Shown: in pieces, positions 7,331 through 44,684 of the stretch
Layout of the letters: each line of letters opens with the position of its first letter
How positions within the stretch are numbered: position 1 is the stretch's first letter
From: an uncultured Gammaproteobacteria bacterium
Lineage (GTDB): Bacteria > Patescibacteriota > Microgenomatia > Levybacterales > UBA12049
NCBI GenBank assembly: GCA_964579845.1
Contig: CAZOHC010000006.1
Location: 1-44,688, forward strand
Direction of reading: 5' to 3'
Length of the DNA: 44,688 bases
Notes under the pieces: model-generated
Seen by the model: the letters and a program-made list of their open reading frames with translations, nothing else
Told to the model about the DNA's origin: nothing
The model's database searches: none
Program-made: the position numbers and the translations under genes

Positions 7331-7531
7331 TTCATGACTACGTAAGCTTTTGAACAGCCACTTCAACTTCTCACGTCACATACTGTAGCTCTGACAAGCG
7401 TACATTCTACAAATATCGACACCTTCCCCCAAATCCGACGTCACAGAATCGATTATAAGGGGTAAAAAAACAGTACGCTGACTAATATCCTATCTCTCGT
7501 TAAAAGCGTATTGACACTTCATCGCTCCCAA

Positions 7532-7880
7532 GTCATTCTGAGCGAAGCGAAGAATCATATTTCTTGTGACGTACTACTCCGTCTATATTCTCACCAATAA
7601 GTCCCAAACGACGCTTTATCCAGGAGTGACGAATAATCTGTCCCGGAGAGTACGAGAACATAGAATGGGCTAGATTGAAGGATTCATTAAGAAATATAAC
7701 AGTACGAAGTTGGTTTTCATTGAGCCATTGATACATCTCGAGGAGGCCCTTAAAGCAGAAGAGAAAGTGAGAGCGGATGGACTCGAGCGAAAAAACAAGT
7801 ATTAATAGAATCAATGCATGGACAAGGGAAGAACTTGTCTTCAGAGATATTTTGAGATTCTTCGCTTTGCTCAGAATGAC
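7532..7880. repeat. R1: inverted 25-nt arms of the GTCATTCTGA..GAAGAATC palindrome family enclosing the GIY-YIG pseudogene
   Basis: Left arm 7532-7556 is gtcattctgagcgaagcgaagaatc. Right arm 7856-7880 is gattcttcgctttgctcagaatgac. The arms are reverse complements at 24 of 25 positions. Confidence 0.8.
7566..7805 (+). pseudogene. GIY-YIG (UPF0213-type) nuclease gene with an in-frame TAG
   Basis: The frame reads VTYYSVYILTNKSQTTLYPGVTNNLSRRVREHRMG-TAG(7671-7673)-IEGFIKKYNSTKLVFIEPLIHLEEALKAEEKVRADGLERKNKY. This matches the GIY-YIG small-protein pattern but has YPG instead of YIG, a premature stop and a short C-terminus. Confidence 0.6.
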
Positions 7881-8068
7881 ACGCATGAGGAATCAGACGA
7901 ACAGATTGCTCCTCCATCGTCCGCTTCACGGGCTCGCACTGACACTCACTGCGACTTAAAATTCATAAAATTGATGAGCAAGCATGTACCTTATCTGCTA
8001 GGGGTATTTTTCGTATGCGATACTAAAATTATATACTTTTGTATATTATTACATACTCGTATAGGCAC

Positions 8069-10723: not shown

Positions 10724-10963
10724 CCGAACGGCTCTCTACCCCGATCATATCGGGACACAAAGCCGGTCAGATGAAAATAGCTTTACATAACTGAAATGAA
10801 AAGTGCGAAATCCTACCTGCAGTGAGGCGAAAAAACGAATAATTCTTGCGCACGACAAATAAGGGGGTCAGTATACCAAAAAATAGTGCGGAAAACAATG
10901 TTATAGGACAATATTCTGTTTATTGAAGGAGTGCAATTCCGGAGCTCTGAAGCTCAATAACTG

Positions 10964-11036
10964 TGGACCGTATCGGATTCGAACCGACGACCTTTCGCAT
11001 GCCATGCGAACGCTCTACCAACTGAGCTAACGGCCC
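10964..11036 (-). tRNA. tRNA-Ala (anticodon GGC), CCA not encoded
   Basis: Reverse complement is GGGCCGUUAGCUCAGUUGGUAGAGCGUUCGCAUGGCAUGCGAAAGGUCGUCGGUUCGAAUCCGAUACGGUCCA. It folds as a cloverleaf with a 7-nt anticodon loop AUGGCAU, the G3:U70 alanine identity pair and a GGUUCGAAUCC T-arm. Confidence 0.9.
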
Positions 11037-18034: not shown

Positions 18035-18060
18035 CAATTTTAAATTTGAAATTTTCATTG
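18035..18060. repeat. Left inverted repeat flanking the four-helix-bundle gene
   Basis: The reverse complement of caattttaaatttgaaattttcattg shares tgaaaatttcaaatt plus flanking bases with 18461-18482. Confidence 0.6.
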
Positions 18061-18070
18061 AATTCATTTT

Positions 18071-18439
18071 TCATGATGAACTGACAGCTATTTTTGAAAA
18101 AATCAAAGTAAACTCCTGCGCCTCTTGCCATAAGGTACGACAATCTTCTTTTTTTGAATCAACAGCATGCGCTAACATCCGCAACCAGTATTTCGTTTCC
18201 TTCGCCTCTTTCTTGCAAATATAGATTTTATTCCTAAAGTCTTTTCTACTTGACGCACCATTTGCTTCACAATAATTAGCACCTATGCTTGTTGCTGAAC
18301 GAATCAATTGGCTTATAATCGGGATGGTAATAGTATCCCGCTGGACACTCTTACATAACTCAATCACACGCTCTGCGAACAAAGCTGTCCTCTCTTCCAA
18401 ATCATATGTTTTATGTTCTACTATTGACATTAAATCCAC
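18071..18439 (-). CDS. Four-helix-bundle protein (23S rRNA intervening-sequence protein family)
   Basis: 122 aa. YDLEERTALFAERVIELCK..ISQLIRSATSIGANYCEANGASSRKDFRNKIYICKKEAKETKYWLRML is the family signature. Confidence 0.85.
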   Translation of the reverse strand: MDLMSIVEHKTYDLEERTALFAERVIELCKSVQRDTITIPIISQLIRSATSIGANYCEANGASSRKDFRNKIYICKKEAKETKYWLRMLAHAVDSKKEDCRTLWQEAQEFTLIFSKIAVSSS

Positions 18440-18460
18440 AAAAGCTCATCCATTGAAAAT

Positions 18461-18482
18461 TGAAAATTTCAAATTAAAAATT
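18461..18482. repeat. Right inverted repeat flanking the four-helix-bundle gene
   Basis: tgaaaatttcaaattaaaaatt is the inverted partner of 18035-18060. Confidence 0.6.
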
Positions 18483-32689: not shown

Positions 32690-35551
32690 TTATCCCTCGA
32701 AAATATTCCCCTCTTCAAGCGTCTTTTTCGGTTCTCCTGGGTGATTAGTATCTTTTTTCTGCGCTTTCTCTTGCATCATGCTGTTGGGGTGCTGTCTCTT
32801 ATGAAACGGTTTTCCCGCATGTCCTGATGCATGGTGCGGTTTCTGCGCATGAGGCTGCTGTCCGTTGTCTCGTTCTGATGCATTCCGATGCTCAGATCCG
32901 GTGGAACTTCGAGGTTGTGCATGTTGCTTGGTATCATCGGAACCGGAATTTTTCTGCTCGTTATTTCTATCAGACTTCGCAAAGAATTTTTCCTGTGACA
33001 GGTCAACTGATGCCCTATCCCGTTTTTCTTCAGGTTGTGTCTGTGGCTTCTGTGCCGGCTGGGCGTGTTTCGGAGGCTGGTTTTCTTTTCGTTCGACCTG
33101 TTCAGGTGAATGTTGCTTCGGTTTCTCAAACGAGGACTGCTCACGCCGTTCCGGTGACGAAGGTCTATTCTCGTGCTTACGTTCCCCACCTTGTTGCTTA
33201 GACTGATTAGCTTGTCCTCCAGGCGGCTTTTGCCCGCCTGCTTGCGGTTTCTGCGTAGGAGGTTCGCTGTATACACCGGGAATCGAGATCAGGACATCTT
33301 CTTTCACAGGCTTCATATATCGCTCACGACTCATCTTCATCACTTTTTCCCGATTCTGGGTCACGGATCGAGGTAGTGGCAGCGTAAAGCACATAAACGG
33401 ACTGGAGGTCATCCCGTCAATCATCATCTTCAGAATAGCCTGGTAATTCCCGAGTGCGAGCACATCTTCTTCTTTGAAGCGTTCGACGAATTCTTTCGCC
33501 AGATACGGACTATCCCCTGCACCGACGAGGAAGGTCATAATCGTCCCGCAGTTCCCGAAGATCGCAAGCCTGACGTCTTCGTCGATCTGTCCCATATACT
33601 GGTTCGCCAGAATCAGATTAAGGCGGTATTTTCGAGCTTCAGAGAGAATTTTGATAAACGATGACGTCGCGAAATTCTGGAACTCATCCACATACAGGTA
33701 AAAATCCCGTCGCTCAGACTCCTCCTGAAACGCACGACTCATCGCAGCCAATTGCAGTTTTGTAATAATCATCGCACCCAGAAGTGCTGCGTTATCCTCA
33801 CCCAGTTTTCCCTGCGACAGGTTCAGCAGGAGAATTTTCCCCTCATCCATGACTTTGAGGAGGTCGAGTGATGACTTCGGATTTTTGATGATGTTCCGGA
33901 TGACGGTACTGGAGACGAACTGACCGACTTTGTTCTGAATCGGTGAGACTGCCTCTGTTCTCATCTTGTCTGAATACATGTTAAATTCATTTAACCAGAA
34001 ACTTTTCAGCACCGGATTAGTGAGGCGATCGAAGACTTTGGCACGGAATTTCGCATTCGCAAGCATCTCAGGCACCATAAGCAGCGTCGCATCAGGCATT
34101 TCGATGACTGATGCGAGTGTATTTCTCAGAATGTATTCAAGTCGTGGTCCCCAGGACGTTCCGTACAGTTTATTAAAAATCGCGACAATGCCTGAAACCA
34201 CGAGTTCTTTCTGCTCCGGATTATTCACTTCAAGCGGATTCAGAGAGAATGCATTCTGCGTGTCTGAGGGGTCAAGCGAGATAATGTCATTCACCCGGTA
34301 CGACGGAACATAATCCAACACCGTCTCACACAGATCACCATGCGGGTCGATAATACAGAAGCCCTCACGATTTCGCATATCATTAATCGCCATATTCGCG
34401 ATAAAAGTCGACTTCCCGGTACCTGTTTTTCCGATGACATAGAAATGGCGTCTCCTGTCGACTTTTTTAATCCCGAAGACCATCTGACGGTTTTTAAACT
34501 CCGTTCTCCCGAAGAAATTTACGTCTGCTTTCTGCTCATCAGTCATGAATTCAGCAACAGGCAAATTCTCCGGTGCATCCGTCAGAATCACCTTATGCCA
34601 GGCGATATTCGGAATCGTCGAGAGCTGCATGCCGGGGAAATGGAACAAAGTCGCCAGCTCCCGGACATTCAGAATCTGATGCGTCGGGGTAAAATACTGT
34701 GAACGATCCTGCATATGCTTGAGAAGCCGCTGTTTCTGCCAGAGAACAGGCTTACTCAGATGCAGACTGCTACCTGCAGGATTGTTAAATGACGAGAATG
34801 AATGCGCGATCTCGGTCATAAAATGATACGATCGCTGTTTCGTCGGACCGTTGGTCGCGATTCTGATGGCTGTTCTGAACCCGGCATAGGCGACTTTCTC
34901 GAGAATTTCTTTAGCTTTCGGATTCGGGTGTGCAGTACCGGCACTATCGACTGTTTTTTTATTCGCCTCATGTTCACCTGAACGCTGCCAGGAATCACCT
35001 ATAGGGTATAACAGGTACTGAATCACCGCGACATCTCCGGGCTGAGACTTCGAAAGAATACCGAGGATAGACGAGATCGGATCGACATCCTTAAACGTAT
35101 CGAAGGTTTTAATCGGCAGTAAACCGCCGGTGAGCTTCAGCTGGGTATAGGAGAGCGTATCTTTTTTCGCGAGCATCTCAGGCAGATAGTCTTTGACCCG
35201 TGAGATGAGTGCTTTCGGATACTGCGCGACGAGCTGACTCTCGATAAACGCCTGGTAGTCAGGCGGTACTACGAGGAAAAATCTGATCTGCTGATCGACA
35301 ACCCCGATCTCCAGGCTGATCGGAATCCCCCGCTTCAGAAAGACATAGTGCCTGAATCTGAGCTCGGTCAAACTGCTTAAAAACTGCACTGTCGATTCAG
35401 GTGTTTGTTCTCCGGTGCGTGACGTGCGTATTTCGAGGACAACATGTTTCGGTGACTCATACGCATCCTTAGTGGCTACCATATAGCTTACATAATAGTG
35501 TATCTGAGGCTTCGACGCAACGTGGACAATGCCAATGTGAGCCTGAAACAA
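32690..35551 (-). CDS. VirD4/TraD-like type IV coupling-protein-family ATPase with a long disordered Q/P/K/H-rich tail
   Basis: 953 aa with Walker A GKTGTGKST and Walker B-like FYLYVDEFQNF. The ARKYRLNLILANQY motif is present. The last ~230 aa are low complexity. ATG 35482 is an alternative start. Confidence 0.85.
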   Translation of the reverse strand: MFQAHIGIVHVASKPQIHYYVSYMVATKDAYESPKHVVLEIRTSRTGEQTPESTVQFLSSLTELRFRHYVFLKRGIPISLEIGVVDQQIRFFLVVPPDYQAFIESQLVAQYPKALISRVKDYLPEMLAKKDTLSYTQLKLTGGLLPIKTFDTFKDVDPISSILGILSKSQPGDVAVIQYLLYPIGDSWQRSGEHEANKKTVDSAGTAHPNPKAKEILEKVAYAGFRTAIRIATNGPTKQRSYHFMTEIAHSFSSFNNPAGSSLHLSKPVLWQKQRLLKHMQDRSQYFTPTHQILNVRELATLFHFPGMQLSTIPNIAWHKVILTDAPENLPVAEFMTDEQKADVNFFGRTEFKNRQMVFGIKKVDRRRHFYVIGKTGTGKSTFIANMAINDMRNREGFCIIDPHGDLCETVLDYVPSYRVNDIISLDPSDTQNAFSLNPLEVNNPEQKELVVSGIVAIFNKLYGTSWGPRLEYILRNTLASVIEMPDATLLMVPEMLANAKFRAKVFDRLTNPVLKSFWLNEFNMYSDKMRTEAVSPIQNKVGQFVSSTVIRNIIKNPKSSLDLLKVMDEGKILLLNLSQGKLGEDNAALLGAMIITKLQLAAMSRAFQEESERRDFYLYVDEFQNFATSSFIKILSEARKYRLNLILANQYMGQIDEDVRLAIFGNCGTIMTFLVGAGDSPYLAKEFVERFKEEDVLALGNYQAILKMMIDGMTSSPFMCFTLPLPRSVTQNREKVMKMSRERYMKPVKEDVLISIPGVYSEPPTQKPQAGGQKPPGGQANQSKQQGGERKHENRPSSPERREQSSFEKPKQHSPEQVERKENQPPKHAQPAQKPQTQPEEKRDRASVDLSQEKFFAKSDRNNEQKNSGSDDTKQHAQPRSSTGSEHRNASERDNGQQPHAQKPHHASGHAGKPFHKRQHPNSMMQEKAQKKDTNHPGEPKKTLEEGNIFEG

Positions 35552-35667
35552 GTCCTTGCCGGAGAGTAGATAGTAGAAAATAGAAGGTAGATCATCTACC
35601 CTCCTACTTCAACCCTCCACCCTGAATTCCCAATTCGATAATTAAACAATTAGTAATTAACCACCTA

Positions 35668-35696
35668 TTGACGTACTATAGGACATGTGCTATAAT
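35668..35696 (+). promoter_or_regulatory. P1: near-consensus sigma70 promoter
   Basis: TTGACG, a 17-nt spacer (tactataggacatgtgc), then TATAAT. Confidence 0.6.
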
Positions 35697-35780
35697 CCCC
35701 TTCATCTCATCAATATTGATGAGTTTTTGCCCGCCTGCATCGCATATGCGAAGCATTTCGGGCAGGTTCTCGACATTTTC

Positions 35781-35878
35781 GTCATCCTGAACGAAGTGTG
35801 ATTTATCCATTGAACATATCAATGAAATCACCCTGATTAGGGAAGGATCTCAAGATTCTTCGCTACACTCAGAATGAC
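35781..35878. repeat. R2: composite nested palindrome in reverse orientation relative to R9
   Basis: gtcatcctgaac..gtgtgatttatccattgaacatatcaatgaaatcaccctgattagggaaggatctcaagattcttcgctacactcagaatgac. Its reverse complement matches R9 almost base for base over ~70 nt. Confidence 0.8.
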
Positions 35879-35943
35879 AGTTTAGAACAGCACATTGAAA
35901 GTTACAGAGGAAAATTGTACTGAAATCTGATGATTCATACCAT

Positions 35944-35995
35944 CGGCTTTGGTTTCGGTCCTGCAACAAGCCTTGCAGGCCAGAATCCGGAGCCG
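35944..35995 (+). ncRNA. Conserved hairpin motif, copy 1 (UUCGGUCC..ACAAGCC..GGCCAGAA)
   Basis: Outer stem CGGCUUUGG/CCGGAGCCG and inner stem CCUGCA/UGCAGG. Both stems differ from copy 2 yet stay complementary. Confidence 0.5.
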
Positions 35996-36592
35996 AACGT
36001 GGTGGATCGTCAGGCCTTCCTGTTCATAGAACATGGGACGCTTCCGACCAGTTTGGCTTCGGCATAATCTCTTATCCAACTTAATTCAATTTGGAAGGAG
36101 GGGAAAATGCCGCGTGCACCGCCTAAAAAACGGTGAAACTTGGGTATATGAAGAATATACCCACTTAATATAGATCGCGGAGCCTTGGCTGACGGTGCCC
36201 CGGGCATAGCCTGCGGGATTCGGCCGATTGGCTCAAAATCTCACACTCATGCGAGTGTGAAAATTGTGTTTAACTGAAGTGAGGAGGGCGGATTGCGAAC
36301 GCTGATACCTCCGTAAGGAGGGAACGTTTTGCGCCTGGATGGGCGCTAATTTAGCCTCCCCCGTCACGTTTCCGGGGTTCCCCATATCGGGGAACCCCAG
36401 TTCTTACACCAGTACAACATACAGCATTGAAGCTGACAGCTTCGTTCCCCTATCGCTTGCGATAGATCGAACGATCCCAGGCTCTCAATGCCCAAGCTGG
36501 CTCGATTTATCGGCCACTCCTCTGTAACTTACTATCAACCCCCAAATCCCCCACTTTTGAAATTCCAAAACATTACCTATTTCTAAACTCGT

Positions 36593-36706
36593 GTCATGCT
36601 GATCAGAGTGTGATTTATCCATTGAACTTATCAATGAAATCACCCTGATTAGAGAAGAATCTTTTTTATAAGATCCTTCTCTCGATTTCATCGGGATCAG
36701 GATGAC
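36593..36706. repeat. R3: composite nested palindrome
   Basis: gtcatgctgatcagagtgtgatttatccattgaacttatcaatgaaatcaccctgattagagaagaatc..gatccttctc..gatcaggatgac. Confidence 0.75.
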
Positions 36707-36734
36707 AAAAAATATAATCCCAACTAGAATACCC

Positions 36735-36763
36735 TTGACATTTATTATAGGCTTTGCTATACT
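36735..36763 (+). promoter_or_regulatory. P2: near-consensus sigma70 promoter
   Basis: TTGACA, a 17-nt spacer (tttattataggctttgc), then TATACT. Confidence 0.6.
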
Positions 36764-36769
36764 TCTCCT

Positions 36770-37242
36770 CTTCTCGTCATTCTTGAGGAGATGCACGTTA
36801 AAAAGGGAGAGAGAAATTTGTAATAGATTGACCGGGACTATCCGTGTCAGGCATTAGCTTCGGTCCCACAACGAGCTTTGTGGGCCAGAAGCTGATGCTT
36901 GCCGGAAGGTTCCGCTAAGAGGATCTCACCTACTTGGTATATTGTTCGACAATATATGAGTATTTGAGCCCTTTCGGCAACGCATCAGCACTATATTAAG
37001 ACCGAATAATTTTCGGAAGATCGCTTGAACCAAGCGGTGACGGTGTTGCGAAAGGTGACACAATCATCGCTCCGAAAGGAGATAGTGATGTAGCAGTCAG
37101 TTGCTCCGGGAACGCCCGAAAAGACGCACACGCCCGAAAAAGCACCCGTTTTTACGGGTGCGCCACCCGAGTCACGACAGTGATATTCACTGCACGGCAA
37201 GGGATCAGGCAACATCGGGGAGGCACCAGTCGGCGCCTCCCC
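36770..37242 (+). ncRNA. Candidate structured noncoding transcript U2 (P2 to the hairpin at 37217-37242)
   Basis: No credible ORF. It contains motif copy 2, CTCC-gaaa-GGAG (37070-37081) and GCACCCGT-tttt-ACGGGTGC (37142-37161). It ends in the GC-rich hairpin GGGGAGGC..GCCTCCCC. Confidence 0.45.
36849..36900 (+). ncRNA. Conserved hairpin motif, copy 2
   Basis: Outer stem AGGCAUUAGC/GCUGAUGCUU and inner stem CCCACA/UGUGGG. It shares the UUCGGUCC, ACGAGCU and GGCCAGAA elements with copy 1. Confidence 0.5.
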
Positions 37243-37250
37243 ACTTTCTA
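37217..37250 (+). terminator. Terminator-like GC hairpin with a weak U tract
   Basis: GGGGAGGC-accagtcggc-GCCTCCCC followed by actttcta. Confidence 0.4.
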
Positions 37251-37443
37251 TTACAAATAATACGGCACGCAGACTAATGACATCATTCCATCATCGAAAT
37301 TGCGGTGATTCGAACGATACTGAGGCTAATTGTGCCCAATACAAATCGCGTTTACGCGACTCATCTCACTCCCTTTTTTCATTCGCTCCAAAATCCCCTG
37401 ATACTTGATACTTTCCCCTTTATACCTTTAAGGCTGAGTAGCC

Positions 37444-37472
37444 TTGACGAATTCCCTTACCGAGCGTATAAT
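37444..37472 (+). promoter_or_regulatory. P3: consensus sigma70 promoter
   Basis: TTGACG, a 17-nt spacer (aattcccttaccgagcg), then TATAAT. Confidence 0.6.
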
Positions 37473-37478
37473 CCCGAT

Positions 37479-38306
37479 ACGACATTTACTTGTACGATAT
37501 TTGATTCGTATCTCATGTAAAATGCTCGCCTATTTTGTATTCTGATGTACTGCACAATGCGGTATGCAGAAGATCTTTGACAAGGTACAGAGGAACATTG
37601 AGAGATACCGGAGGGTATTTTCCTTCCCTGCATAAAACACCAGCCAAGACGTTCGGTATACGTGAAAATGCAAAGGTCAAAATGCAAAAGTATGGTCATC
37701 CTGAATTGATTTTCAGGATCAACTTAAACTTTTTATCTGAATTTTTGCCTTTTACCTTTTAAAATTTGAATTCACCGTATCACCGTAGGTGTTGGCCGGT
37801 GTTTTGTGATGGGGATCGATACGAGCCTCCAACTCACTCCCGAAATCAGTAGAAGTCCCCGTACTCTACGGTTAGAGGAATTCGTGACTCGTCACGAAAC
37901 ATCGGCGCCACTCTCCTAGGTGGAGAGTTCGTGCCCGGAGGGCAATATGACAGGTTCGCTCACTGTCGATAGGAGGTCAATCTTTATGAACGATCCACCC
38001 TCGACTGAAGCGCCGTCTGAAGCGATCGCCTAAGAGCTTTTAGTTTGCTCTGCTCAGGCCGATCGTTTCACCGGAGGGTGTAGCATTACACCCTCCACTT
38101 ACTTTGAATTCTAACCGCGAAGCCCGGTGTGCTGTGACCCCCACTTGCAGGCACACCCGCTTTGCATTCCGGAAGGAAACATCATCCATCCATCCCGATG
38201 GTGTTTTCTTCCATCCCGAGTTTGAAGTGGTGGCCTACCTTCTCTCCCCCACCACTTCAGCTCATGCAGGAAGACCTGTTCAACAGGTCTTCCTGCCCTT
38301 TTTCAT
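37479..38306 (+). ncRNA. Candidate ~830-nt noncoding (or micro-ORF leader) transcript U3, from P3 to a strong terminator
   Basis: It is bounded by P3 and the 14-bp terminator at 38266. Only a 15-codon ORF has an RBS. Helices include GGAGGGTGT-agcatt-ACACCCTCC and GAAGTGGTGG..CCACCACTTC. Confidence 0.5.
37695..37723. repeat. R10: minimal outer-arm-only version of the palindrome family
   Basis: GTCATCCTGAA-ttgatt-TTCAGGATCAAC. Confidence 0.5.
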
Positions 38307-38310
38307 TTTC
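38266..38310 (+). terminator. Strong rho-independent terminator
   Basis: GCAGGAAGACCTGT-tca-ACAGGTCTTCCTGC followed by CCTTTTTCATTTTC. Confidence 0.8.
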
Positions 38311-38494
38311 TCTCACGATACTGCACGACGAGTGCCTCAATCACCTTCACCATTTTGCGGTGAATCGTGCCTGACGCATGTACGCCTGCCATTCGGCAGA
38401 CACGTTTTGTGTTGTATTCCGGCTCGTTTTTTAACGGCCACTCTGTACCTTGTTTTTTCTATCCCCCCTTCAAGCCTGACTTCTCCCCCTCATT

Positions 38495-38586
38495 GTCATT
38501 CTGAGGTGTCTACCGAAGAATCCCTTCTGTATGAGACCCCTGTCTGCCGGCAGGCAAGGCTTCATCCTTTCAGTCTTCAGGATGAC
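38495..38586. repeat. R4: degenerate palindrome copy with an internal insertion
   Basis: gtcattctgaggtgtctaccgaagaatccc...cagtcttcaggatgac. Confidence 0.6.
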
Positions 38587-38845
38587 AGATTAGTTGTGGG
38601 TCTACTTCTGTGAAAATTCTTGTTTTAACGCACAAAATCCGTGAAAAATATTGAGTAAACGCACGAAGAGCTTTCAGGTATGGTACGACGACAATCGGTA
38701 TCGAAGCGCGTATGGTGAGGAGTCATACATAGCTCGTTAAATGCCGTTCATCGTTACCTCTTATCGATACGAGCTTCCTAACCGTAAGACACATCTACTA
38801 AGATCCTCATCTTCTAGTAACGATATCTCTTCCTAATGATGAGTC

Positions 38846-38874
38846 TTGACAAGACCTATAGGATATGCTAGTAT
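38846..38874 (+). promoter_or_regulatory. P4: sigma70-like promoter of the same family, upstream of the ribozyme and small-gene operon
   Basis: TTGACA, a 17-nt spacer (agacctataggatatgc), then TAGTAT. It shares the internal CTATAGG element with P1. Confidence 0.45.
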
Positions 38875-39070
38875 AACTCAACAATTCTGCCCGGATGGAT
38901 AAACACCTCAGGGCTGAAGAAGTACTTTAACAATTCAGCTCGAAACACTCACCGCATCCTTTCTGATGCATACATTCCCTATTTATGACCGGAGACAAGA
39001 GTCTAACTCAGAGCTATTTTGCGTTCTGAGCAACCGGACTCTTATCTTCTGTCGTAAGTAAGAAGTACAT

Positions 39071-39130
39071 GTCATTCTGAACAACCGTGAAGAATCCCTA
39101 TATGAGATCCTTCGCTCCGCTCAGGATGAC
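39071..39130. repeat. R5: compact palindrome copy
   Basis: GTCATTCTGA-acaaccgt-GAAGAATC-cctatatga-GATCCTTC-gctccgc-TCAGGATGAC. Confidence 0.8.
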
Positions 39131-39479
39131 AAATTTCTTTGACCGAGTCATCACGTCAAACGCGACAGGGACTCGATCTGTTTAATCTGGGATTCTGCTC
39201 TGCAGAAGTTCTTTAATAAGGCGAATACGTATAAAAGGAGTTCAAAGGGCAAAAGGCAAAAGTCAAAACGCCTAATACAGCCTTAGGGCTGCTTGTGGTG
39301 CAAAATGATGGATGCGTGAGAATATTGAGCTTCGTAACAGAGATATCTCATAATCGACAGCGGTTAAGGGGGTATGGTTTCATTCAAATGGATTTGAAAC
39401 GATACTCTTTATCCGCTGTTGATATACAAAAGTAACTTTTCATTTTTTACTCCCTTCCCTATCATACTTATATCGCCTT

Positions 39480-39538
39480 ACTGTCTACGCCTCATCGGCG
39501 TACTGATGAGTCCCGCTTTTAAGCAAGGACGAAACAGT
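39480..39538 (+). ncRNA. Hammerhead ribozyme A (type III, compact); predicted cleavage after C39485
   Basis: ACUGU-C|UACGCC-ucauc-GGCGUA-CUGAUGA-GUCC..GGAC-GAA-ACAGU. All invariant core positions are present and stems I, II and III pair. Confidence 0.85.
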
Positions 39539-39597
39539 GTTCTTTAACAAGGCATCGAGATCATCTAAACGGCTCAGAGCCGTGTGGTGATCGAAGA

Positions 39598-39631
39598 GTT
39601 AGAAAAATTCAGAATTTTTCTAACCGTTTTA
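39598..39631 (+). terminator. AT-rich 12-bp hairpin plus a short U tract (attenuator or terminator-like)
   Basis: GTTAGAAAAATT-cag-AATTTTTCTAAC followed by cgtttta. Confidence 0.4.
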
Positions 39632-39766
39632 ACAGATTAGCCCTTTATGAGCAGATGGTCCCTAAGGGGGGTTGGTTCGGATCCACTTCAGGCATCCGTA
39701 CGAACCTCTTTAAGGGCCATTTGCCCTTCCCCGCAGCAATGTCGCTCGGTAAAGGAAAGGGTAAAA

Positions 39767-39922
39767 ATGATCTGGAAAATCTTTCGTCATTTTCTTTCCG
39801 CCATCATTCGGTGGTGGGAGAAGAAGACCGCGCTGCCAAGCTGGGAGCGTGAGAACGCTCCATTCTACAGCGGATATGATCCGCTAGATCGGTACAGGAG
39901 GAAGGAAAATGGGAACTGTTAA
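39767..39922 (+). CDS. Small hypothetical protein (51 aa)
   Basis: ATG preceded by AAAGGAAAGGG. The product is MIWKIFRHFLSAIIRWWEKK... It overlaps the next ORF by 14 nt. Confidence 0.35.
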   Translation: MIWKIFRHFLSAIIRWWEKKTALPSWERENAPFYSGYDPLDRYRRKENGNC

Positions 39923-40247
39923 AAAATTTCCACTCGACAGAGTCCGTCCGCCGGACTTTTACGCGGAAGATTACCCGCGGGGTCCAGCACGGATAAAACC
40001 TATCCCAGGCTCTCTCCCCGAGTTCTCTCCGGGAGACAGGTTCCTCCTCGAGCGTGATGATGAGAGTAATGACCTTTTTGAAGGTCAGACGCTCACCGTC
40101 CTACAGGAGTTTCTTAACCTCGTCGTGTACGAGGTCGAGGAGTTTCCTGGTGTAAAGCTCTACCTCGAGAGGTGGGAGTTTGATATGCTCCGCCTCAATC
40201 AGGTGATGATCTACCTACCTCCGGCAATCGAGCCGGGGGTGAAGTAG
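39909..40247 (+). CDS. Hypothetical protein (112 aa)
   Basis: AGGAGG lies 7 nt upstream of the ATG. No family was recognised. Confidence 0.6.
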   Translation: MGTVKKFPLDRVRPPDFYAEDYPRGPARIKPIPGSLPEFSPGDRFLLERDDESNDLFEGQTLTVLQEFLNLVVYEVEEFPGVKLYLERWEFDMLRLNQVMIYLPPAIEPGVK

Positions 40248-40298
40248 AACAGTAGGCAACTGTGCCTGCTGAACGAAACAAATCCCAAGGAGGGATAA

Positions 40299-40514
40299 AT
40301 GATTTTCTTGCTCATTCCGCTGGCTGCCCTCTTCGCGGTGTGGGTCTACTGTGACCTGCATCCGACCCAGGCAGTCATGCCCTGCCGCGTTCGGCGGGCA
40401 GACTGGGACCTGGGAGTAAGGCAGAATGCTCTGCTCCCCGAGGGAGCGGTGAATACTGTCATCGGCGAGAGCCGGTGGTACATACGCCCGAAGCGGGCGG
40501 ACTTCGCCCGCTAA
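40299..40514 (+). CDS. Small membrane protein (71 aa)
   Basis: AAGGAGGG RBS and the N-terminal TM helix MIFLLIPLAALFAVWVY. Confidence 0.55.
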   Translation: MIFLLIPLAALFAVWVYCDLHPTQAVMPCRVRRADWDLGVRQNALLPEGAVNTVIGESRWYIRPKRADFAR

Positions 40515-40662
40515 TAATCTGTTAATAATGTCTTCGGTGCACCGCACCGCTATCTGATCCGTTTTTGTAATGGATTATGAAGGCATGTCGGTGCTGCCGA
40601 TAGATGAACTACATAACGTAGTTCCGAGATGCCTTCAATCCCGGCAGGTCTTCGTACCTGCC

Positions 40663-40808
40663 GGGCTTATCGTCAGCTCAAAGCTGGCCTGATGAGTCCA
40701 TGCTCAAAACTCTGTCATTCTGAAGCCAACTGCTGAAGAATCTCTATATGAGATCCTTCCCTACGCTCCAGGATAACGAAAATTTGAGCTGAGGACGAAA
40801 TACGTTCT
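40663..40808 (+). ncRNA. Hammerhead ribozyme B (type III, long stem II); predicted cleavage after C40671
   Basis: GGGCUUAU-C|GUCAGCU-caa-AGCUGGC-CUGAUGA-GUCC..[R6]..GGAC-GAA-AUACGUUC. The core is intact. Stem I has one G.U pair and stem III has one mismatch. Confidence 0.7.
40714..40777. repeat. R6: palindrome copy forming the distal stem II of hammerhead B
   Basis: gtcattctgaagccaactgctgaagaatctctatatgagatccttccctacgctccaggataac. Confidence 0.75.
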
Positions 40809-40972
40809 TCAGAGATGAATTCAACTGAATTCTCCTTTGGAGAAGTTCTTTAAAAGAGAGAAATGATAACGAGGCATCGGCAGCAAGTTCCGCCACCACG
40901 GAATTTCCTGCCGATGCTTGGTAAGTCGGTCACCTTCTCCGGTGACTCGGAGAAAAAGGGAGGAACAAAACC

Positions 40973-41461
40973 ATGTTGGTGGATACTTCTATTTTAACCG
41001 CTCAATTCAACACTATGCTCGAGAATAACGAGCTAGCTGAGGGCTCCGCCCTCTTCTCGTTCATCGATGAACTTGAGAAGGCGGAGGAAACGCTCCGCGT
41101 CAGGAGCATTCACATTCCGTTCCTTCGGGAACGCATGCTGGAGCTCCGAGAAGCAGGAGAGCGCATCTCCGAAGCGTTCGGTGGTGAACTGAGGGATACT
41201 CTAGATATCCCCCTGAGTGATATCGACGAATATCCTGATGAAGGAGATGATGACTTGCTGTCGCAAGTCGATGACGTCATCCTCCACGGCAAGCTCGATG
41301 AGGCGTACATTCTTCAGAAGAAGATGAACGCCAGAAAGTCGCGCATCAAGGTCGACCTCGACCAACTGGCCAACCAGGACAAAGGCCGAGCGATTATCGA
41401 AGAGCTGCTGGCACATGCCCGGGCGTTTTTATCGCGCACGGCAAAGCGCTACGCAGCGTAG
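40973..41461 (+). CDS. Acidic helical hypothetical protein (162 aa)
   Basis: AGGGAGGA RBS lies 8 nt upstream of the ATG. The ORF is followed by the hairpin at 41471-41500. Confidence 0.65.
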   Translation: MLVDTSILTAQFNTMLENNELAEGSALFSFIDELEKAEETLRVRSIHIPFLRERMLELREAGERISEAFGGELRDTLDIPLSDIDEYPDEGDDDLLSQVDDVILHGKLDEAYILQKKMNARKSRIKVDLDQLANQDKGRAIIEELLAHARAFLSRTAKRYAA

Positions 41462-41470
41462 AATTTATCT

Positions 41471-41500
41471 GTGTGCGGTTGTCTCCGGACAGCCGCACAC
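41471..41500 (+). terminator. 13-bp hairpin with a UCCG loop after ORF 40973-41461 (3'-end stabiliser or terminator)
   Basis: GTGTGCGGTTGTC-tccg-GACAGCCGCACAC. The following sequence is only moderately U-rich. Confidence 0.4.
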
Positions 41501-41514
41501 ATTCATTTCTCTCA

Positions 41515-41655
41515 TTCTGTTTACGCCTCATCGGCGTACTGATGAGTCCATACTCAAACTCTGTCATTCTGAAGCCAACGGCTGAAGAATCTCTCTACAA
41601 GAGGTCCTTCCCTACGCTCCAGGATGACTAGTGAGGAGCTGAGGACGAAACAGAA
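41515..41655 (+). ncRNA. Hammerhead ribozyme C (type III, long stem II); predicted cleavage after U41521
   Basis: UUCUGU-U|UACGCC-ucauc-GGCGUA-CUGAUGA-GUCC..[R7]..GGAC-GAA-ACAGAA. Confidence 0.8.
41563..41628. repeat. R7: palindrome copy forming the distal stem II of hammerhead C
   Basis: gtcattctgaagccaacggctgaagaatctctctacaagaggtccttccctacgctccaggatgac. Confidence 0.75.
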
Positions 41656-41874
41656 GTTCTTTGACAAGGCATAGTCGAGGTCGCCTTTGGCGACCGAAGT
41701 AACTTTTCAGGAAGTACTTACTATACATTCTAAAAAGTTCCAATTTTTATAAACACCTTCTTTCCTTTTCCCGAGGACGATACAGGTGCCGGTGATTGGG
41801 TATCGTGGAAAAATCTTCGTCCACGATGCCTGTTCTCCGGCACACTGGTCCGGGAAATCAAAAGGAGGAAAATC

Positions 41875-42234
41875 GTGGTTAAGGTTCATGTACTTAACGC
41901 GCTTGACGCCATCGATCAATTGGAGGAAGAATTTCTTCTCAACGATGAGGACGAAGCAGCGGCGAGAGAAAGGCTCGAGCGAGAGCTTGAGGAACAAATG
42001 GCCGAGGACGTAGTCCAGAAGGCTGTAATAGCCTTCCAAAAGGGATTCACAGTCTCGTGCGATAAGCACGAGAGCAGTGTGTCCCCTGAGGGACGCTTTT
42101 CTCTCAATCATCCGGATGAAGATTGCCATCTGTGCAATTGGATTCTGATGAAGTGGAGACAGCGGCAAGACGAAGAAAGAAAGAGGTTTTACGAAAATCG
42201 CAACTTTCTTCGCCGAAACGAACTTGACTACTGA
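41875..42234 (+). CDS. Hypothetical protein (119 aa), acidic N-terminus with Cys/His cluster
   Basis: GTG start 6 nt after AAGGAGG. The stop overlaps the RBS of the next gene. Confidence 0.6.
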   Translation: MVKVHVLNALDAIDQLEEEFLLNDEDEAAARERLERELEEQMAEDVVQKAVIAFQKGFTVSCDKHESSVSPEGRFSLNHPDEDCHLCNWILMKWRQRQDEERKRFYENRNFLRRNELDY

Positions 42235-42245
42235 GGAGGTCTTCC

Positions 42246-42650
42246 ATGAAGCTTCTTTTCCTTGTACTCTTGTTTGCGTCCACACTCGTCTCCCCCGTTC
42301 ATGCGGAGGAGTACGCCCGGCCAGGATCGACGAAAGGTCAGGTGACGACTGATATCGTGTCACCTGAAGCCTTTCAGAAAGACATGAACGCTCGCATCAC
42401 CGGTCGTGGGGAATTCATTTTCCCCGATGGCGCGAACCAAGCAATTTTCGTCGACAAGACATGTACCAGCACGCTGAACATGTCTGTTCCATTCTTTAAG
42501 TGGAACGAGGCGTTGGGCGATCATGAAGTACTCGCAATTCACTTCAACTACAAGGTGGAGTTGTATGGCGAGTATCGGAGCGATTACGCTCGAGAGGGAT
42601 TGTACCTCTATGGCGTATGCGAGGGGGTTTTCAACCTCGCATACGAGTAA
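42246..42650 (+). CDS. Secreted hypothetical protein (134 aa)
   Basis: GAGGAGG RBS and the signal peptide MKLLFLVLLFASTLVSPVHA. Confidence 0.65.
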   Translation: MKLLFLVLLFASTLVSPVHAEEYARPGSTKGQVTTDIVSPEAFQKDMNARITGRGEFIFPDGANQAIFVDKTCTSTLNMSVPFFKWNEALGDHEVLAIHFNYKVELYGEYRSDYAREGLYLYGVCEGVFNLAYE

Positions 42651-42660
42651 AGGAGGAACT

Positions 42661-42987
42661 GTGCTCTACACTGCAGGATGGGCAATAATTTGGGTCCTTT
42701 TGATCCTATTTATTGGCCTCCTACTCCGATTTACTTGGTCTGTGGCGAAAGTTTACGTTGCCATGGGGATGGGGTATCTGAGGCAGATACAATCGCCACC
42801 AACATCATACTCCTCCTCTAGCTGGCCAACCACCGTTGCAGAGACGGAAATCGATCAATACCCGGAGGAAGAAGTCATCGACGAAGATCTGTGGGAAGAT
42901 TTGGGGATAGGCCCTGAAATCGAAGTAACCGGCATCATTCAGATTGCCGATTACGCTAACGACTGGAGTGAAAGGAGACTTACGTGA
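42661..42987 (+). CDS. Small membrane protein with an acidic tail ending NDWSERRLT
   Basis: GTG 42661 follows AGGAGG. The TM helix is WAIIWVLLILFIGLLLRF. The stop overlaps the next start (GTGA). The ORF track start (42523) overlaps the upstream gene. Confidence 0.55.
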   Translation: MLYTAGWAIIWVLLILFIGLLLRFTWSVAKVYVAMGMGYLRQIQSPPTSYSSSSWPTTVAETEIDQYPEEEVIDEDLWEDLGIGPEIEVTGIIQIADYANDWSERRLT

Positions 42988-43184
42988 ATGTTCTGAAACT
43001 CTTGTTCGATCTCCTCTCCGGAACAGGTGTGTTCCGAAGGGGAATCGAGTATCCGGTGGAAACGCCGATAATACTTGAAAATGGTGAGAAATGGTATGCC
43101 TCCGATGAATTCGGAGGAGGCGTCAGTTACTTCTCAAACAACGACCGCAAGGTTGTTTATCCGGGATCAGCTGATCCCGTCTAG
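42984..43184 (+). CDS. Hypothetical protein (66 aa)
   Basis: GTG start 6 nt after AAAGGAG, translationally coupled to the preceding ORF. Confidence 0.5.
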   Translation: MNVLKLLFDLLSGTGVFRRGIEYPVETPIILENGEKWYASDEFGGGVSYFSNNDRKVVYPGSADPV

Positions 43185-43264
43185 CGTTCGCTATAGTGAA
43201 CAGGAGGCGGTATCGGTGAAGTCACCGGAACCTTTGCTGCTGAATCTTCGCAGCACGACATGCC

Positions 43265-43405
43265 TTCTGTTCTTCCGATGAAATCGGAACTGATGAGTCC
43301 ATGCTCATTCCTGTCATTCTGAAGCCAATGGCTGAAGAATCTCTCTAAAAGAGATCCTTCATTACACTCAGGATGACTAGTGAGGAGCTGAGGACGAAAA
43401 CAAAA
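43265..43405 (+). ncRNA. Hammerhead ribozyme D (type III, long stem II); predicted cleavage after C43272
   Basis: UUCUGUU-C|UUCCGAU-gaa-AUCGGAA-CUGAUGA-GUCC..[R8]..GGAC-GAA-AACAAAA. The core is intact and stem III has one A/C mismatch. Confidence 0.7.
43313..43377. repeat. R8: palindrome copy forming the distal stem II of hammerhead D
   Basis: gtcattctgaagccaatggctgaagaatctctctaaaagagatccttcattacactcaggatgac. Confidence 0.75.
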
Positions 43406-43408
43406 TCT

Positions 43409-43521
43409 GTCATTCTGATCCTGATAAAATCGGGAGAAGAATCTCTACATGAGATCCTTCCCTAATCAGGGTGATTTCATTGATATGTTCAATGGATAAA
43501 TCACACTCTGTTCAGGATGAC
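43409..43521. repeat. R9: composite nested palindrome, inverted partner of R2
   Basis: gtcattctgatcctgataaaatcgggagaagaatctctacatgagatccttccctaatcagggtgatttcattgatatgttcaatggataaatcacactctgttcaggatgac. Confidence 0.8.
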
Positions 43522-43728
43522 AAAGTTCTTTAAAATAGAAAAGTATTCGGTGCCGGCAGGAGCGCACTGTACAACGGTAGACGAGAGATTAAATCGCACG
43601 AGGTATTTATTTTTTGGGCAGGAAAATAAATTTGATACTTTTGCCTTTTGATTTTTAACGTTTGCACTTGTTATGGTACGCTCCTGTCGGCATTCGAGCG
43701 CTGACACGAGCTTTCTTCGGAGGTATAG

Positions 43729-43869
43729 ATGCTGGAAGCATTGAAGCTTCTGGTCTTAGGACTCATCGCTTTCGGGATTTTGGCATTGCTGATCGTCTAT
43801 GTCATTGTCCCGATTCTCAGTCGTTGCATCGATTTCGATGACCCAGATGACTGGAGTGAGATCCGCTAG
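43729..43869 (+). CDS. Micro membrane protein (46 aa) ending DDWSEIR
   Basis: GGAGG lies 6 nt upstream of the ATG. The product is MLEALKLLVLGLIAFGILALLIVYVIVPILSRCIDFDDPDDWSEIR. It is below the ORF-track length cutoff. Confidence 0.4.
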   Translation: MLEALKLLVLGLIAFGILALLIVYVIVPILSRCIDFDDPDDWSEIR

Positions 43870-43888
43870 TGAAAGGAGCGCAGCGGTC

Positions 43889-44041
43889 ATGCTTCGTCGG
43901 TTCTTCCACGAAATCGTGGAGACATTCGTGCGGGTTTACCTCGCAACCCATCCTGAGATCACGCTAGATCCGGAATGGGAAGACACTCGTCCTGCCGAAA
44001 CAGGCAGGAGAAAGGAACAGCTCCATGGCGGAAAAAGCTAA
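43889..44041 (+). CDS. Small hypothetical protein (50 aa)
   Basis: The ATG lies downstream of AAAGGAG. It is an internal start of track ORF 43799-44041. Confidence 0.35.
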   Translation: MLRRFFHEIVETFVRVYLATHPEITLDPEWEDTRPAETGRRKEQLHGGKS

Positions 44042-44150
44042 GACGATTGTCGGACTCGTGGGAATCATCGTCATTCTGGCGGTTGTTGCCATGTTAACGT
44101 TTCTCGGTTGGTGCACGGAAGTGTCCATCGAGGACGCTCAGTCGCTGTAA
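44025..44150 (+). CDS. Micro membrane protein (41 aa)
   Basis: The product is MAEKAKTIVGLVGIIVILAVVAMLTFLGWCTEVSIEDAQSL. It overlaps the preceding ORF by 17 nt. Confidence 0.35.
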   Translation: MAEKAKTIVGLVGIIVILAVVAMLTFLGWCTEVSIEDAQSL

Positions 44151-44162
44151 GGAGTGAACCAT

Positions 44163-44435
44163 ATGCATCTTGTCCTTGACCAAGACATCGAGGCCATTGT
44201 GGCCGTCACCAATGAGGATCCTGAAATCAGGGCTCGTGTAGGTGAAACAGGCAGGCTCCTGGCCGGAGGGGAGCTCTATGAGGTTTCCTCCTACGACGAC
44301 TGGAGCATTTGTGCTCGTTATATCACACCCGGACGTGAACTTCGGTCTGGTCGGAATATTCCGATCAATACCATCGTGTACGTTTCTGCCGAAACCCTTG
44401 CTTCAGCTACTACAGCCTTCAGGTTCATAGAATGA
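44163..44435 (+). CDS. Hypothetical protein (90 aa)
   Basis: AAGGAG lies 8 nt upstream of ATG 44163. The track lists GTG 44154. Confidence 0.55.
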   Translation: MHLVLDQDIEAIVAVTNEDPEIRARVGETGRLLAGGELYEVSSYDDWSICARYITPGRELRSGRNIPINTIVYVSAETLASATTAFRFIE

Positions 44436-44521
44436 AAATTCTAATTGCAATCCTAGGCTGGAAAGGTGGAGCAGGCCATTTTATCTTCATTCTACTCTTC
44501 TTTCTAGTGTACGCACTGTAA
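44432..44521 (+). CDS. Micro hydrophobic peptide (29 aa)
   Basis: ATGA start/stop overlap with the preceding ORF. The product is MKILIAILGWKGGAGHFIFILLFFLVYAL. Confidence 0.3.
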   Translation: MKILIAILGWKGGAGHFIFILLFFLVYAL

Positions 44522-44540: not shown

Positions 44541-44572
44541 AAGGGGGTACCCGTCGGGTACCCCCTTTTCTC
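44541..44572 (+). terminator. Strong rho-independent terminator closing the small-gene operon
   Basis: AAGGGGGTACCC-gtc-GGGTACCCCCTT followed by TTCTC. Confidence 0.85.
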
Positions 44573-44655: not shown

Positions 44656-44684
44656 TTGACATATCCTATAATATTTGATATAAT
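44656..44684 (+). promoter_or_regulatory. P5: consensus sigma70 promoter of the same family at the window edge
   Basis: TTGACA, a 17-nt spacer (tatcctataatatttga), then TATAAT. Confidence 0.6.

Follow-up and report, generated by a model that had tools for sequence, protein, structure and literature searches.

The window analysed here, positions 1 to 44,688 of contig CAZOHC010000006.1 (assembly GCA_964579845.1), carries beside a gene for the coupling protein T4CP four motifs with the layout of type III hammerhead ribozymes (HHRs), which we refer to as HHR A to HHR D. All four lie on the plus strand, all are intergenic and all are found inside 3.8 kb, where they alternate with four groups of small open reading frames (ORFs; Table 1). 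An earlier description of this DNA, hereafter called the sequence-only reading, had reported a type III layout at these four sites, had predicted their cleavage junctions and had placed the ribozymes in the gaps between the gene groups, and the motif positions and our descriptor scan agree with each of these claims. The ~93-nt inserts in stem II of HHRs B, C and D were represented there by two dots and are absent from its commentary.

The core sequences CUGAUGA and GAA are intact at 4/4 window sites, the A15.1-U16.1 and G10.1-C11.1 pairs are present in all of them, and H17 is C, C, U and C in HHRs A, B, C and D, respectively, in agreement with the earlier statement that every invariant core nucleotide is in place. 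The connectivity is that of type III hammerheads, with stems I and II closed and stem III open. Stem I is completely paired over 6, 7, 6 and 7 bp (A, B, C and D, with a single G.U pair in B) and occurs in three different sequences among the four sites, HHRs A and C sharing theirs exactly. The base of stem II consists in each case of the 4 bp GUCC/GGAC, and stem III of A and C is a perfect helix of 6 bp. The exact 11-mer CTGATGAGTCC occurs four times in the window, always at an HHR and only on the plus strand, and with one to two mismatches its occurrence stays at background (20 observed vs 14.5 +/- 4.2 in shuffles). A descriptor scan of both window strands returned no hammerhead besides A-D, and a far looser descriptor matched unrelated viral loci (1.1 Mb in total) 17 times, only once with the U7 core (CUGAUGA) and never in a hammerhead-like context. 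Judged by the 11-mer, the descriptor scan and this viral control, chance does not account for the four sites.

HHRs of the same type were also found, again between genes, in the related candidate phyla radiation (CPR) contigs L255, L262, L269, L275, L278 and L318. A scan for CGAAACAG N0-10 TCTTTRACAAGG yielded four further true loci in JGI metagenomes (L262, L269, L275 and L278), and in GTDB genomes the same scan yielded one locus, which belongs to a Candidatus Saccharibacteria metagenome-assembled genome (MAG; L318). Among 13 distinct HHRs from five contigs, CUGAUGA is kept in 13/13 and GAA in 12/13, the opposite of the freely varying core that the sequence-only reading had named as an outcome speaking against it. 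In the same set H17 is C in 9/13 and U in 4/13 with no other base, the A15.1-U16.1 and G10.1-C11.1 pairs are each present in 13/13, and an A stands directly 5' of the stem II 3' strand in 13/13 copies. The stems change in a coordinated manner, as had been proposed: the base of stem II covaries between GUCC/GGAC, GUCU/AGAC, GUUU/AAAC and GUUC/GAAC, and 12 of the 16 stem pairs show compensatory changes on both sides. Standard pairs fill 201 of the 208 stem cells (97%), and when the 3' partners were permuted among the sequences in 2000 rounds, no shuffle (0/2000) reached the observed paired fraction (0.966 vs 0.70 +/- 0.02) or the observed covariation score (0.775 vs 0.234 +/- 0.033), although all these figures are somewhat overstated, since the set was gathered by a core-plus-stem descriptor that requires the core and a minimum of pairing and therefore partly builds in core invariance and some of the pairing. 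That stems I and II are fully compensated in diverse sequences is not, however, a consequence of this descriptor.

Table 1. Features of the window (E1, E2 and E6 to E8 are copies of the repeat element described in the text)
Feature	Position	Strand	Description or basis
HHR A	39478..39540	+	minimal type III; predicted cleavage 39485/39486; stem II GUCC/GGAC with 13-nt loop
HHR B	40664..40806	+	type III; predicted cleavage 40671/40672; stem II insert 93 nt
HHR C	41514..41656	+	type III; predicted cleavage 41521/41522; stem II insert 93 nt
HHR D	43265..43405	+	type III; predicted cleavage 43272/43273; stem II insert 91 nt
Element in stem II of HHR B	40712..40778	+	repeat comparison
Element in stem II of HHR C	41561..41628	+	repeat comparison
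Element in stem II of HHR D	43311..43378	+	repeat comparison
E1, further element copy	38493..38588	+	repeat comparison
E2, free-standing minimal copy in the leader upstream of HHR A	39069..39132	+	ends UGUCAUUCUGA ... UCAGGAUGACA
E6, free-standing 117-nt copy directly 3' of HHR D	43407..43523	+	followed by GUUCUUUAAAAUAG at 43525-43538
E7, element copy in opposite orientation	35780..35880	-	repeat comparison
E8, element copy in opposite orientation	36591..36708	-	repeat comparison
Gene group 1	39767..40514	+	three small ORFs: 39767-39922, 39909-40247, 40299-40514
Gene group 2	40973..41461	+	single ORF, 162 aa (148 aa from an alternative start)
Gene group 3	41875..43184	+	four small ORFs: 41875-42234, 42246-42650, 42661-42987, 42984-43184
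Gene group 4	43729..44521	+	five small ORFs, of which several have one transmembrane-like segment
3' motif GUUCUUUAACAAGGCAU right after HHR A	39539..39555	+	also follows HHRs in L255, L262, L269, L275, L278 and L318
3' motif GUUCUUUGACAAGGCAU after HHR C	41656..41672	+	motif comparison
5'-untranslated-region hairpin UAAGGGGG...CUCUUUA, upstream of first gene	39650..39732	+	RNAalifold; paralog at 39352-39424
10-bp hairpin just 5' of HHR B cleavage site	40640..40665	+	read from sequence; would be the 3' end of the upstream fragment
14-bp GC-rich hairpin between stop codon and HHR C	41470..41501	+	terminator-like scan; U-poor tail
Likely promoter of ribozyme unit	38846..38874	+	TTGACA, 17-nt spacer, TAGTAT; 10/12 matches and extended TG (promoter scan)
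Intrinsic-terminator-like hairpin GGGGGUACCC/GGGUACCCCC with U tract, unit end	44543..44571	+	read from sequence
Consensus promoter of next unit	44656-44684	+	promoter scan

Our preferred reading, to which we assign a probability of about 0.75, is that HHRs A to D are genuine type III self-cleaving ribozymes within one plus-strand unit of ~5.7 kb, that this unit is split co-transcriptionally into blocks, and that the inserts in stem II are passengers. The unit would span from the promoter near 38846 to the terminator near 44543-44571, in a variable island of a CPR chromosome beside the T4CP gene, and no strong plus-strand terminator was predicted between the promoter at 38846-38874 and HHR A. 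Each ribozyme would fold during transcription, with the stem I hairpin, the core and stem II forming first and stem III then pairing back onto the upstream strand, and would cut 3' of C17 or U17. The upstream piece would end with a 2',3'-cyclic phosphate 6-20 nt past a stable hairpin, and B, C and D have such a hairpin at this distance from the cleavage site. With the type III topology the downstream fragment would begin at the first base of stem I and carry the folded ribozyme at its 5' end: it would start with a 5'-OH at the foot of stem I, and the ribozyme would form a cap-like structure, followed by the single-stranded UUCUUUAACAAGG motif and then by a leader hairpin. The polycistron would thereby give rise to one leader RNA and to four blocks of mRNA, each block would gain its own protected ends, and stability and translation would be uncoupled between neighbours.

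The UUCUUUAACAAGG motif on the 3' side of the ribozymes is conserved and apparently single-stranded. Besides the two sites listed in Table 1, the motif in the form (G)UUCUUUAACAAGGCA was found at 40845-40856, 43525-43538, 39208-39224 and 37572-37588, and its sites are placed after hammerheads or after the repeat element. A reading of UUCUUUGACAAGG as the -35 box of a promoter was rejected, as it is not accompanied by a -10 box at the right spacing. The leader hairpin was aligned by RNAalifold over four sequences (window 39352-39424 and 39650-39732, L255 1842-1925 on the minus strand and L253 955-1030 on the minus strand), and of its 26 pairs 12 have changed in a compensatory manner. It pairs the Shine-Dalgarno-like UAAGGGGG with CUCUUUA and may be a translational control element.

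Several points weigh against the processing of a polycistron by active hammerheads. Stem III forms a weak helix in HHR B (3 bp, a C x U mismatch at the fourth pair, 3 bp) and in HHR D (4 bp, an A x C mismatch at the fifth pair, 2 bp), so that the earlier claim that all stems stay complementary goes slightly too far, as it holds for stem I and for stem III of A and C but not for stem III of the other two. In the minimum-free-energy (MFE) folds of B and C competing pairings sequester core nucleotides; in that of B, stem I and the stem II extension are kept, and the 5' strand of stem III pairs with the core instead. The MFE fold of HHR A is the canonical three-stem hammerhead, and the centroid fold of HHR D comprises stem I and the extended stem II. 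No loop-loop tertiary contact of the kind required for fast cleavage at physiological Mg2+ was identified in A-D, no consistent pairing partner being found in loop I, and the usual terminal loop II is lost from B, C and D through their long stem II. HHR C has the cleavage triplet GUU (U17), and GUU cleaves slower than GUC in minimal hammerheads. The family also includes visibly degenerate members: in L255_3959 (minus strand, ~3959-3882) GAU replaces G12 A13 A14 next to a perfect stem III of 7 bp, and in the L255 HHR at ~560-470 (minus strand, near 520) a 38-nt hairpin is inserted between stem I and C3, so these two may be decaying or unusual family members. To these points are added the descriptor-based collection of the HHR set mentioned above, the derivation of both promoter and single transcript from consensus scans only, and the organism-dependence of any stability effect, since a 5'-OH protects against RNase E and is a target of RNase J1 (glmS).

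The comparison with Rfam belongs to the same account. RF00008 (Hammerhead_3), which the sequence-only reading had proposed as a check, aligns at all four sites, over model positions 1-54, but 0/4 reach its gathering score of 48.5 bits, formally one of the two outcomes that were listed there as speaking against the proposal. The scores of A, B, C and D are 41.9, 20.6, 33.5 and 21.6 bits, respectively (E = 8.6e-7, 0.94, 2e-4 and 0.5 in a 5.7-kb search). What lowers the scores of B, C and D is largely the 88-91 loop bases of stem II that stay unaligned, and because related short-loop HHRs likewise remain below the threshold (38.3 and 37.1 bits), 48.5 bits is a conservative cut-off for this HHR clade. 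Rfam also reported more sub-threshold HHRs in related loci, some with 60-90-nt stem II inserts. At gathering thresholds its only match in the whole window was a tRNA-Ala (10963-11036), and no other Rfam ribozyme family was matched in 35.4-44.7 kb. Drum RNA, considered for a supposed association with ribozymes, was dropped as a candidate, as its paper says otherwise and no Rfam match to it was obtained here.

The sub-threshold scores of all four sites, with B and D lowest, the mismatched stem III of these two, the predicted misfolds, the degenerate relatives in L255 and the identical stem I of A and C, which indicates a recent duplication, could also be explained if some or all of the motifs were catalytically dead relics, that is, duplicated DNA repeats kept through their recent origin or through a role as DNA, with B and D as the likeliest cases. 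However, neutral decay does not give rise to 13 diverged copies with compensatory stem changes and a fixed core, the stem II bases covary, and a weak stem III is a frequent property of natural HHRs that are active (Perreault et al., 2011; PMC3088659). We therefore consider relics to be very unlikely. The identification of the four motifs as hammerheads is well supported.

The closest counterpart of the locus was found in L255 (JGI 3300068440), which is syntenic with the window and encodes a T4CP 85% identical to that of the window. On the same side and strand of its T4CP gene, L255 has matching promoters, a matching long hairpin and an ORF-poor stretch (minus strand, 7500-4260), and it contains at least six hammerheads inside 4 kb. 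At nucleotide level the window and L255 resemble each other only in the promoter (77% identity over 88 nt for the block of the window promoter at 38846-38874), in the long hairpin block and in the leader after HHR A, whose ortholog L255_2162 is followed by a leader of 78% identity. In L278 the order of elements is that of the window (small gene, terminator-like hairpin, type III HHR, motif, leader hairpin, next gene), and this contig ends with a promoter sequence identical to that at window 44656. In contrast to the RNA elements, the operon ORFs showed no detectable similarity to the ORFs of L253-L255, L262, L269, L275 and L278. Likewise, an exact look-up and homologue search with the 162-aa ORF at 40973-41461 among 5.8 billion proteins returned only itself, a Pfam scan of ten ORFs gave nothing, none of the thirteen small operon ORFs having a Pfam match, and a comparison of the operon ORFs with PHROGs gave nothing significant, the one weak match (E = 0.0036) being to a family of unknown function. 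The ORF at 42246-42650 has a signal-peptide-like N-terminus. Since HHRs, promoter and leader are kept next to unrelated ORFs, the RNA punctuation is conserved and the genes are replaced, and because this also holds for the 3' motif and the leader hairpins, selection appears to act on the RNA punctuation.

This turnover invites the explanation that the hammerheads delimit gene cassettes that can be exchanged and that the module of ribozyme and leader serves mobility or recombination, with mRNA processing as a secondary effect. Cassettes could be exchanged by homologous recombination at the DNA of the RNA modules, or could move as retrozyme-like RNA circles that arise by cleavage and ligation. 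In line with such exchange, the ORFs are unrelated between the window and L255 even after the leader of 78% identity, and the likely orthologous HHRs are differently ordered, with A, B, C and D in the window facing D-like, B-like, A-like and C-like copies in L255. In addition, the close relatives L256, L257 and L258 stop 430-940 nt upstream of the T4CP gene, from which it is suggested that assemblies break in a repeat-rich island and that the diversity of the island is under-sampled. Spliced or circular products were raised as a possibility for hammerhead arrays by Perreault et al. (2011; PMC3088659), but the same authors sought such products and found none. Moreover, no reverse transcriptase, integrase or transposase was found adjoining the island, and turnover of cargo is expected in any fast-evolving accessory island. 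Mobility would also add to processing rather than exclude it. We regard mobility as the primary role of the modules as improbable and retain transcript processing as the preferred reading.

A related and bolder idea, which we put forward tentatively and consider rather unlikely, is that modules of ribozyme and leader form the fixed scaffold of a Patescibacteria cassette array, in which small membrane or secreted ORFs that lack detectable relatives are swapped between modules of hammerhead, UUCUUUAACAAGG motif and hairpin. If this were true, each new cassette beside the T4CP gene would automatically gain a processed, structured 5' end, the locus would correspond, at the level of RNA, to the cassette organisation of integrons, and prokaryotic hammerheads would have a defined role as portable expression or insulation modules, or as sites of cassette mobility.

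The inserts in stem II of HHRs B, C and D are homologous to one another and to free-standing copies in the window, and belong to a REPIN-like element that is present in eight full copies and one wide pair (7530-7882). It is an inverted doublet of the unit 5'-(UGUC)AUYCU-GA-[variable stem-loop]-GA-AGRAU-3', within which Y and R covary nearly without exception (T-A 185, C-G 63, mixed 2), and the inner stems of the units are variable with their complementarity kept. A diverged L255 copy retains the pairing within units (AUUGC/GCAAU, AUCUU/AAGAU) and has lost the pairing across units, so that the conserved structure consists of two hairpins with tandem G.A pairs. For the same reason a model of the insert with long P1 and P3 helices was dropped. 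An internal loop of 5' AU and 3' UGA is conserved 4 bp away from the HHR core, and its reading as a K-turn was rejected because of a misfit of the bulge and the G.A register. The tandem G.A arrangement of the unit, UGA-[stem]-GAA, matches G8 A9-[stem II]-G12 A13 of the hammerhead core as a local motif, which may be a coincidence. The wide pair comprises two canonical units GTCATTCTGAGCGAAGCGAAGAATC, inverted and flanking ~300 bp, in which a 117-aa ORF starting with MRVILSKAKNL is probably spurious.

The most over-represented 10-mer of the window is GTCATTCTGA, and the signature TGTCATTCTGA...GAAGAATC was found in >120 IMG/VR contigs, often several times per contig, on both strands and with centres of ~10 to 120 nt. 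Scanning these IMG/VR contigs revealed essentially no hammerheads. No copy was found in GenBank phage genomes and hardly any in plasmids, the element matched no Rfam family, and literature searches with its sequence strings and with the spurious peptide string returned only primers or nothing. Similar to REP, BIME and REPIN sequences of proteobacteria as generally described, the element is an inverted doublet of a short hairpin unit, occurs in multiple copies on both strands, is mostly intergenic and has a variable centre and conserved mismatches within the hairpins. In contrast to them, its unit appears unrelated in sequence (UGUCAUYCU-GA-stem-GA-AGRAU) and it is found in CPR and in >120 IMG/VR contigs, not in GenBank phages. 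The window also provides neither an associated RAYT (Y1) gene nor signs of mobility, and no Y1_Tnp or other transposase domain was detected among the 39 window ORFs scanned against Pfam.

Hammerheads that carry the element in stem II were also encountered in L255, where L255_3360 combines the stem II base GUCU/AGAC with a complete element and L255_1204, the likely ortholog of HHR C, combines GUUU/AAAC with only half of it. Pattern scans for this combination gave chance co-occurrences only in IMG/VR and 0 hits each in JGI metagenomes and GTDB genomes, and none of the four matches of a long-stem-II HHR scan of IMG/VR was real. In the window a separate helix of 5-7 bp closes stem II below the element (e.g. 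GCUCAAA/UUUGAGC in B), which means that the core is not necessarily affected by how the element folds internally. Stem II loops range from 5 to 93 nt across the family, and this range together with the half element of L255_1204 indicates that the insert is dispensable for conservation of the core. Taken with the closing helix, these observations make a passenger the simplest explanation of the insert, which lengthens stem II past the conserved 4-bp base and the AU/UGA internal loop and which HHRs B, C and D most probably tolerate without needing it.

The location of the insert also allows a different function to be considered, namely that of a control module, in which a protein or an alternative fold would gate the closure of stem II and turn B, C and D into allosteric hammerheads. 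Engineered stem II aptazymes carry their sensor at exactly this place and, like the HHRs of the window, hold a large folded domain on stem II with a short basal helix left, but they are artificial and ligand-controlled, and the element is most simply a passenger. The element can fold either as a single long hairpin or as a pair of unit hairpins, each with tandem G.A pairs, but not as both at once, in B as well as in C loop I and the stem II extension are complementary, and the combination of HHR and element is kept in the window and L255 with compensated arms (UUCUGA/UCAGGA vs UUUCGA/UCGAGA). However, the closing helix could shield the core from the inner fold, family members with 5-31-nt loops and the likely ortholog with half an element lack the complete module, the >120 IMG/VR contigs carry the element with no HHR nearby, and a candidate binding protein was not identified. 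A control function thus seems extremely unlikely to us, and we continue to treat the inserts as passengers.

The sequence-only reading had considered the punctuated operon not assignable to a described system, a claim that is not supported. Perreault et al. (2011; PMC3088659) described prophage regions in which multiple HHRs flank individual genes or short gene blocks and showed that three such arrays cleave in vitro, one of them also in vivo in E. coli, and a later review (De la Pena, 2017; PMC6155905) notes that prokaryotic HHRs are often clustered and flank ORFs for small, non-conserved proteins, their role being open. With these precedents the clustered arrangement must be regarded as already known. 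The window resembles the arrays of Perreault et al. (2011) in having several intergenic HHRs on one strand, next to one gene or a short run of small, non-conserved ORFs, in the proposal that a long RNA is cut down to the length of genes, and in the frequency of a weak stem III. It differs in its host, a Patescibacteria island by its T4CP gene without an adjoining phage hallmark or integrase, in the 91-93-nt repeat-element inserts in stem II of 3/4 HHRs and in the UUCUUUAACAAGG motif. Multi-HHR clusters are also frequent in IMG/VR contigs, examples being L198 with six candidate hammerhead cores and L150 with three type III motifs. Compared with the viroid, satellite, plant retrozyme and bacterial hammerheads of RF00008, topology, invariant core, NUH triplet and a 4-bp stem II base starting from G10.1-C11.1 are alike, whereas the window sites score 20.6-41.9 bits, stem II loops reach 93 nt instead of the few nt of the model, and U17 is frequent in this clade (4/13).

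As far as it is described in PMC6155905, the discontinuous hammerhead of the Clec2 3' untranslated region (Martick et al., 2008) is the nearest structural precedent for the stem II insert, as it is likewise a natural type III HHR whose core is preserved despite a huge insertion in one helix. According to the same source, that insertion of 150-1500 nt lies in helix I of a eukaryotic mRNA, unlike the ~90-nt repeat element in helix II found here. No paper combining hammerhead ribozymes and candidate phyla was found in the searchable literature, and the Patescibacteria host, the UUCUUUAACAAGG motif on the 3' side and the ~93-nt repeat insert in stem II may be new features. The locus thus shows natural hammerheads that tolerate a repeat element of ~90 nt in stem II, and it places hammerhead arrays in Patescibacteria, including one copy in a Saccharibacteria MAG (L318). 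Some Saccharibacteria are cultivable. With the role of prokaryotic HHRs still open (PMC6155905), the locus offers a comparative handle on it.

The assignment of the window to a Patescibacteria (CPR) chromosome, and not to a phage, follows from the T4CP gene and its surroundings. This gene is a 953-aa ORF (32690-35551, minus strand) for a DUF87/TrwB-type coupling protein, its homologues of 60-85% identity are metagenomic, with the named ones from Levybacteria, Microgenomates and Saccharimonadales, and synteny with L253-L258 extends over its neighbours DUF11/CLIPPER, Rho and LysM-M23. In CPR as a whole, T4CP genes occur widely (bioRxiv 2025.01.22.634366). A phage origin was rejected in view of this chromosomal context and the absence of the element from GenBank phages, and a cyanobacterial origin, considered through HIP1, was rejected with only three GCGATCGC sites. 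A prophage or integrase neighbourhood was not found either, the sole integrase-like domain lying 34 kb off in the ORF at 363-5000. This ORF of 1545 aa has an odd architecture, in which N-terminal phage-integrase SAM-like domains are combined with Peptidase_S74 (endosialidase chaperone).

Between the T4CP gene and HHR A, the ~3.9 kb of 35552-39450 contain no credible long ORF amid a normally gene-dense CPR genome. Four near-consensus sigma-70 promoters are found in this stretch (35668-35696, 36735-36763, 37444-37472 and 38846-38874), which probably encodes several non-coding RNAs. Long paralogous hairpins of the type CGGUCC-hairpin-GGCCAGAA were noticed in the window (35942-36000 and 36845-36903) and in L255 (7347-7235), where the block is 80% identical. 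They show compensatory changes (CUGCA/UGCAG vs CCACA/UGUGG), share a AAGGUACAGAGGAA-type motif upstream and matched no Rfam family. Three micro-ORFs of 9, 15 and 7 codons (36108-36137, 37986-38033 and 39374-39397) are each preceded by a strong Shine-Dalgarno sequence. Elsewhere in the window, within 18036-18482, the minus-strand gene at 18071-18439 encodes a 23S rRNA-intervening-sequence protein (PF05635); it is bracketed by 22-nt AT-rich inverted repeats and, lying between two large genes, has the look of an intervening-sequence-like cassette.

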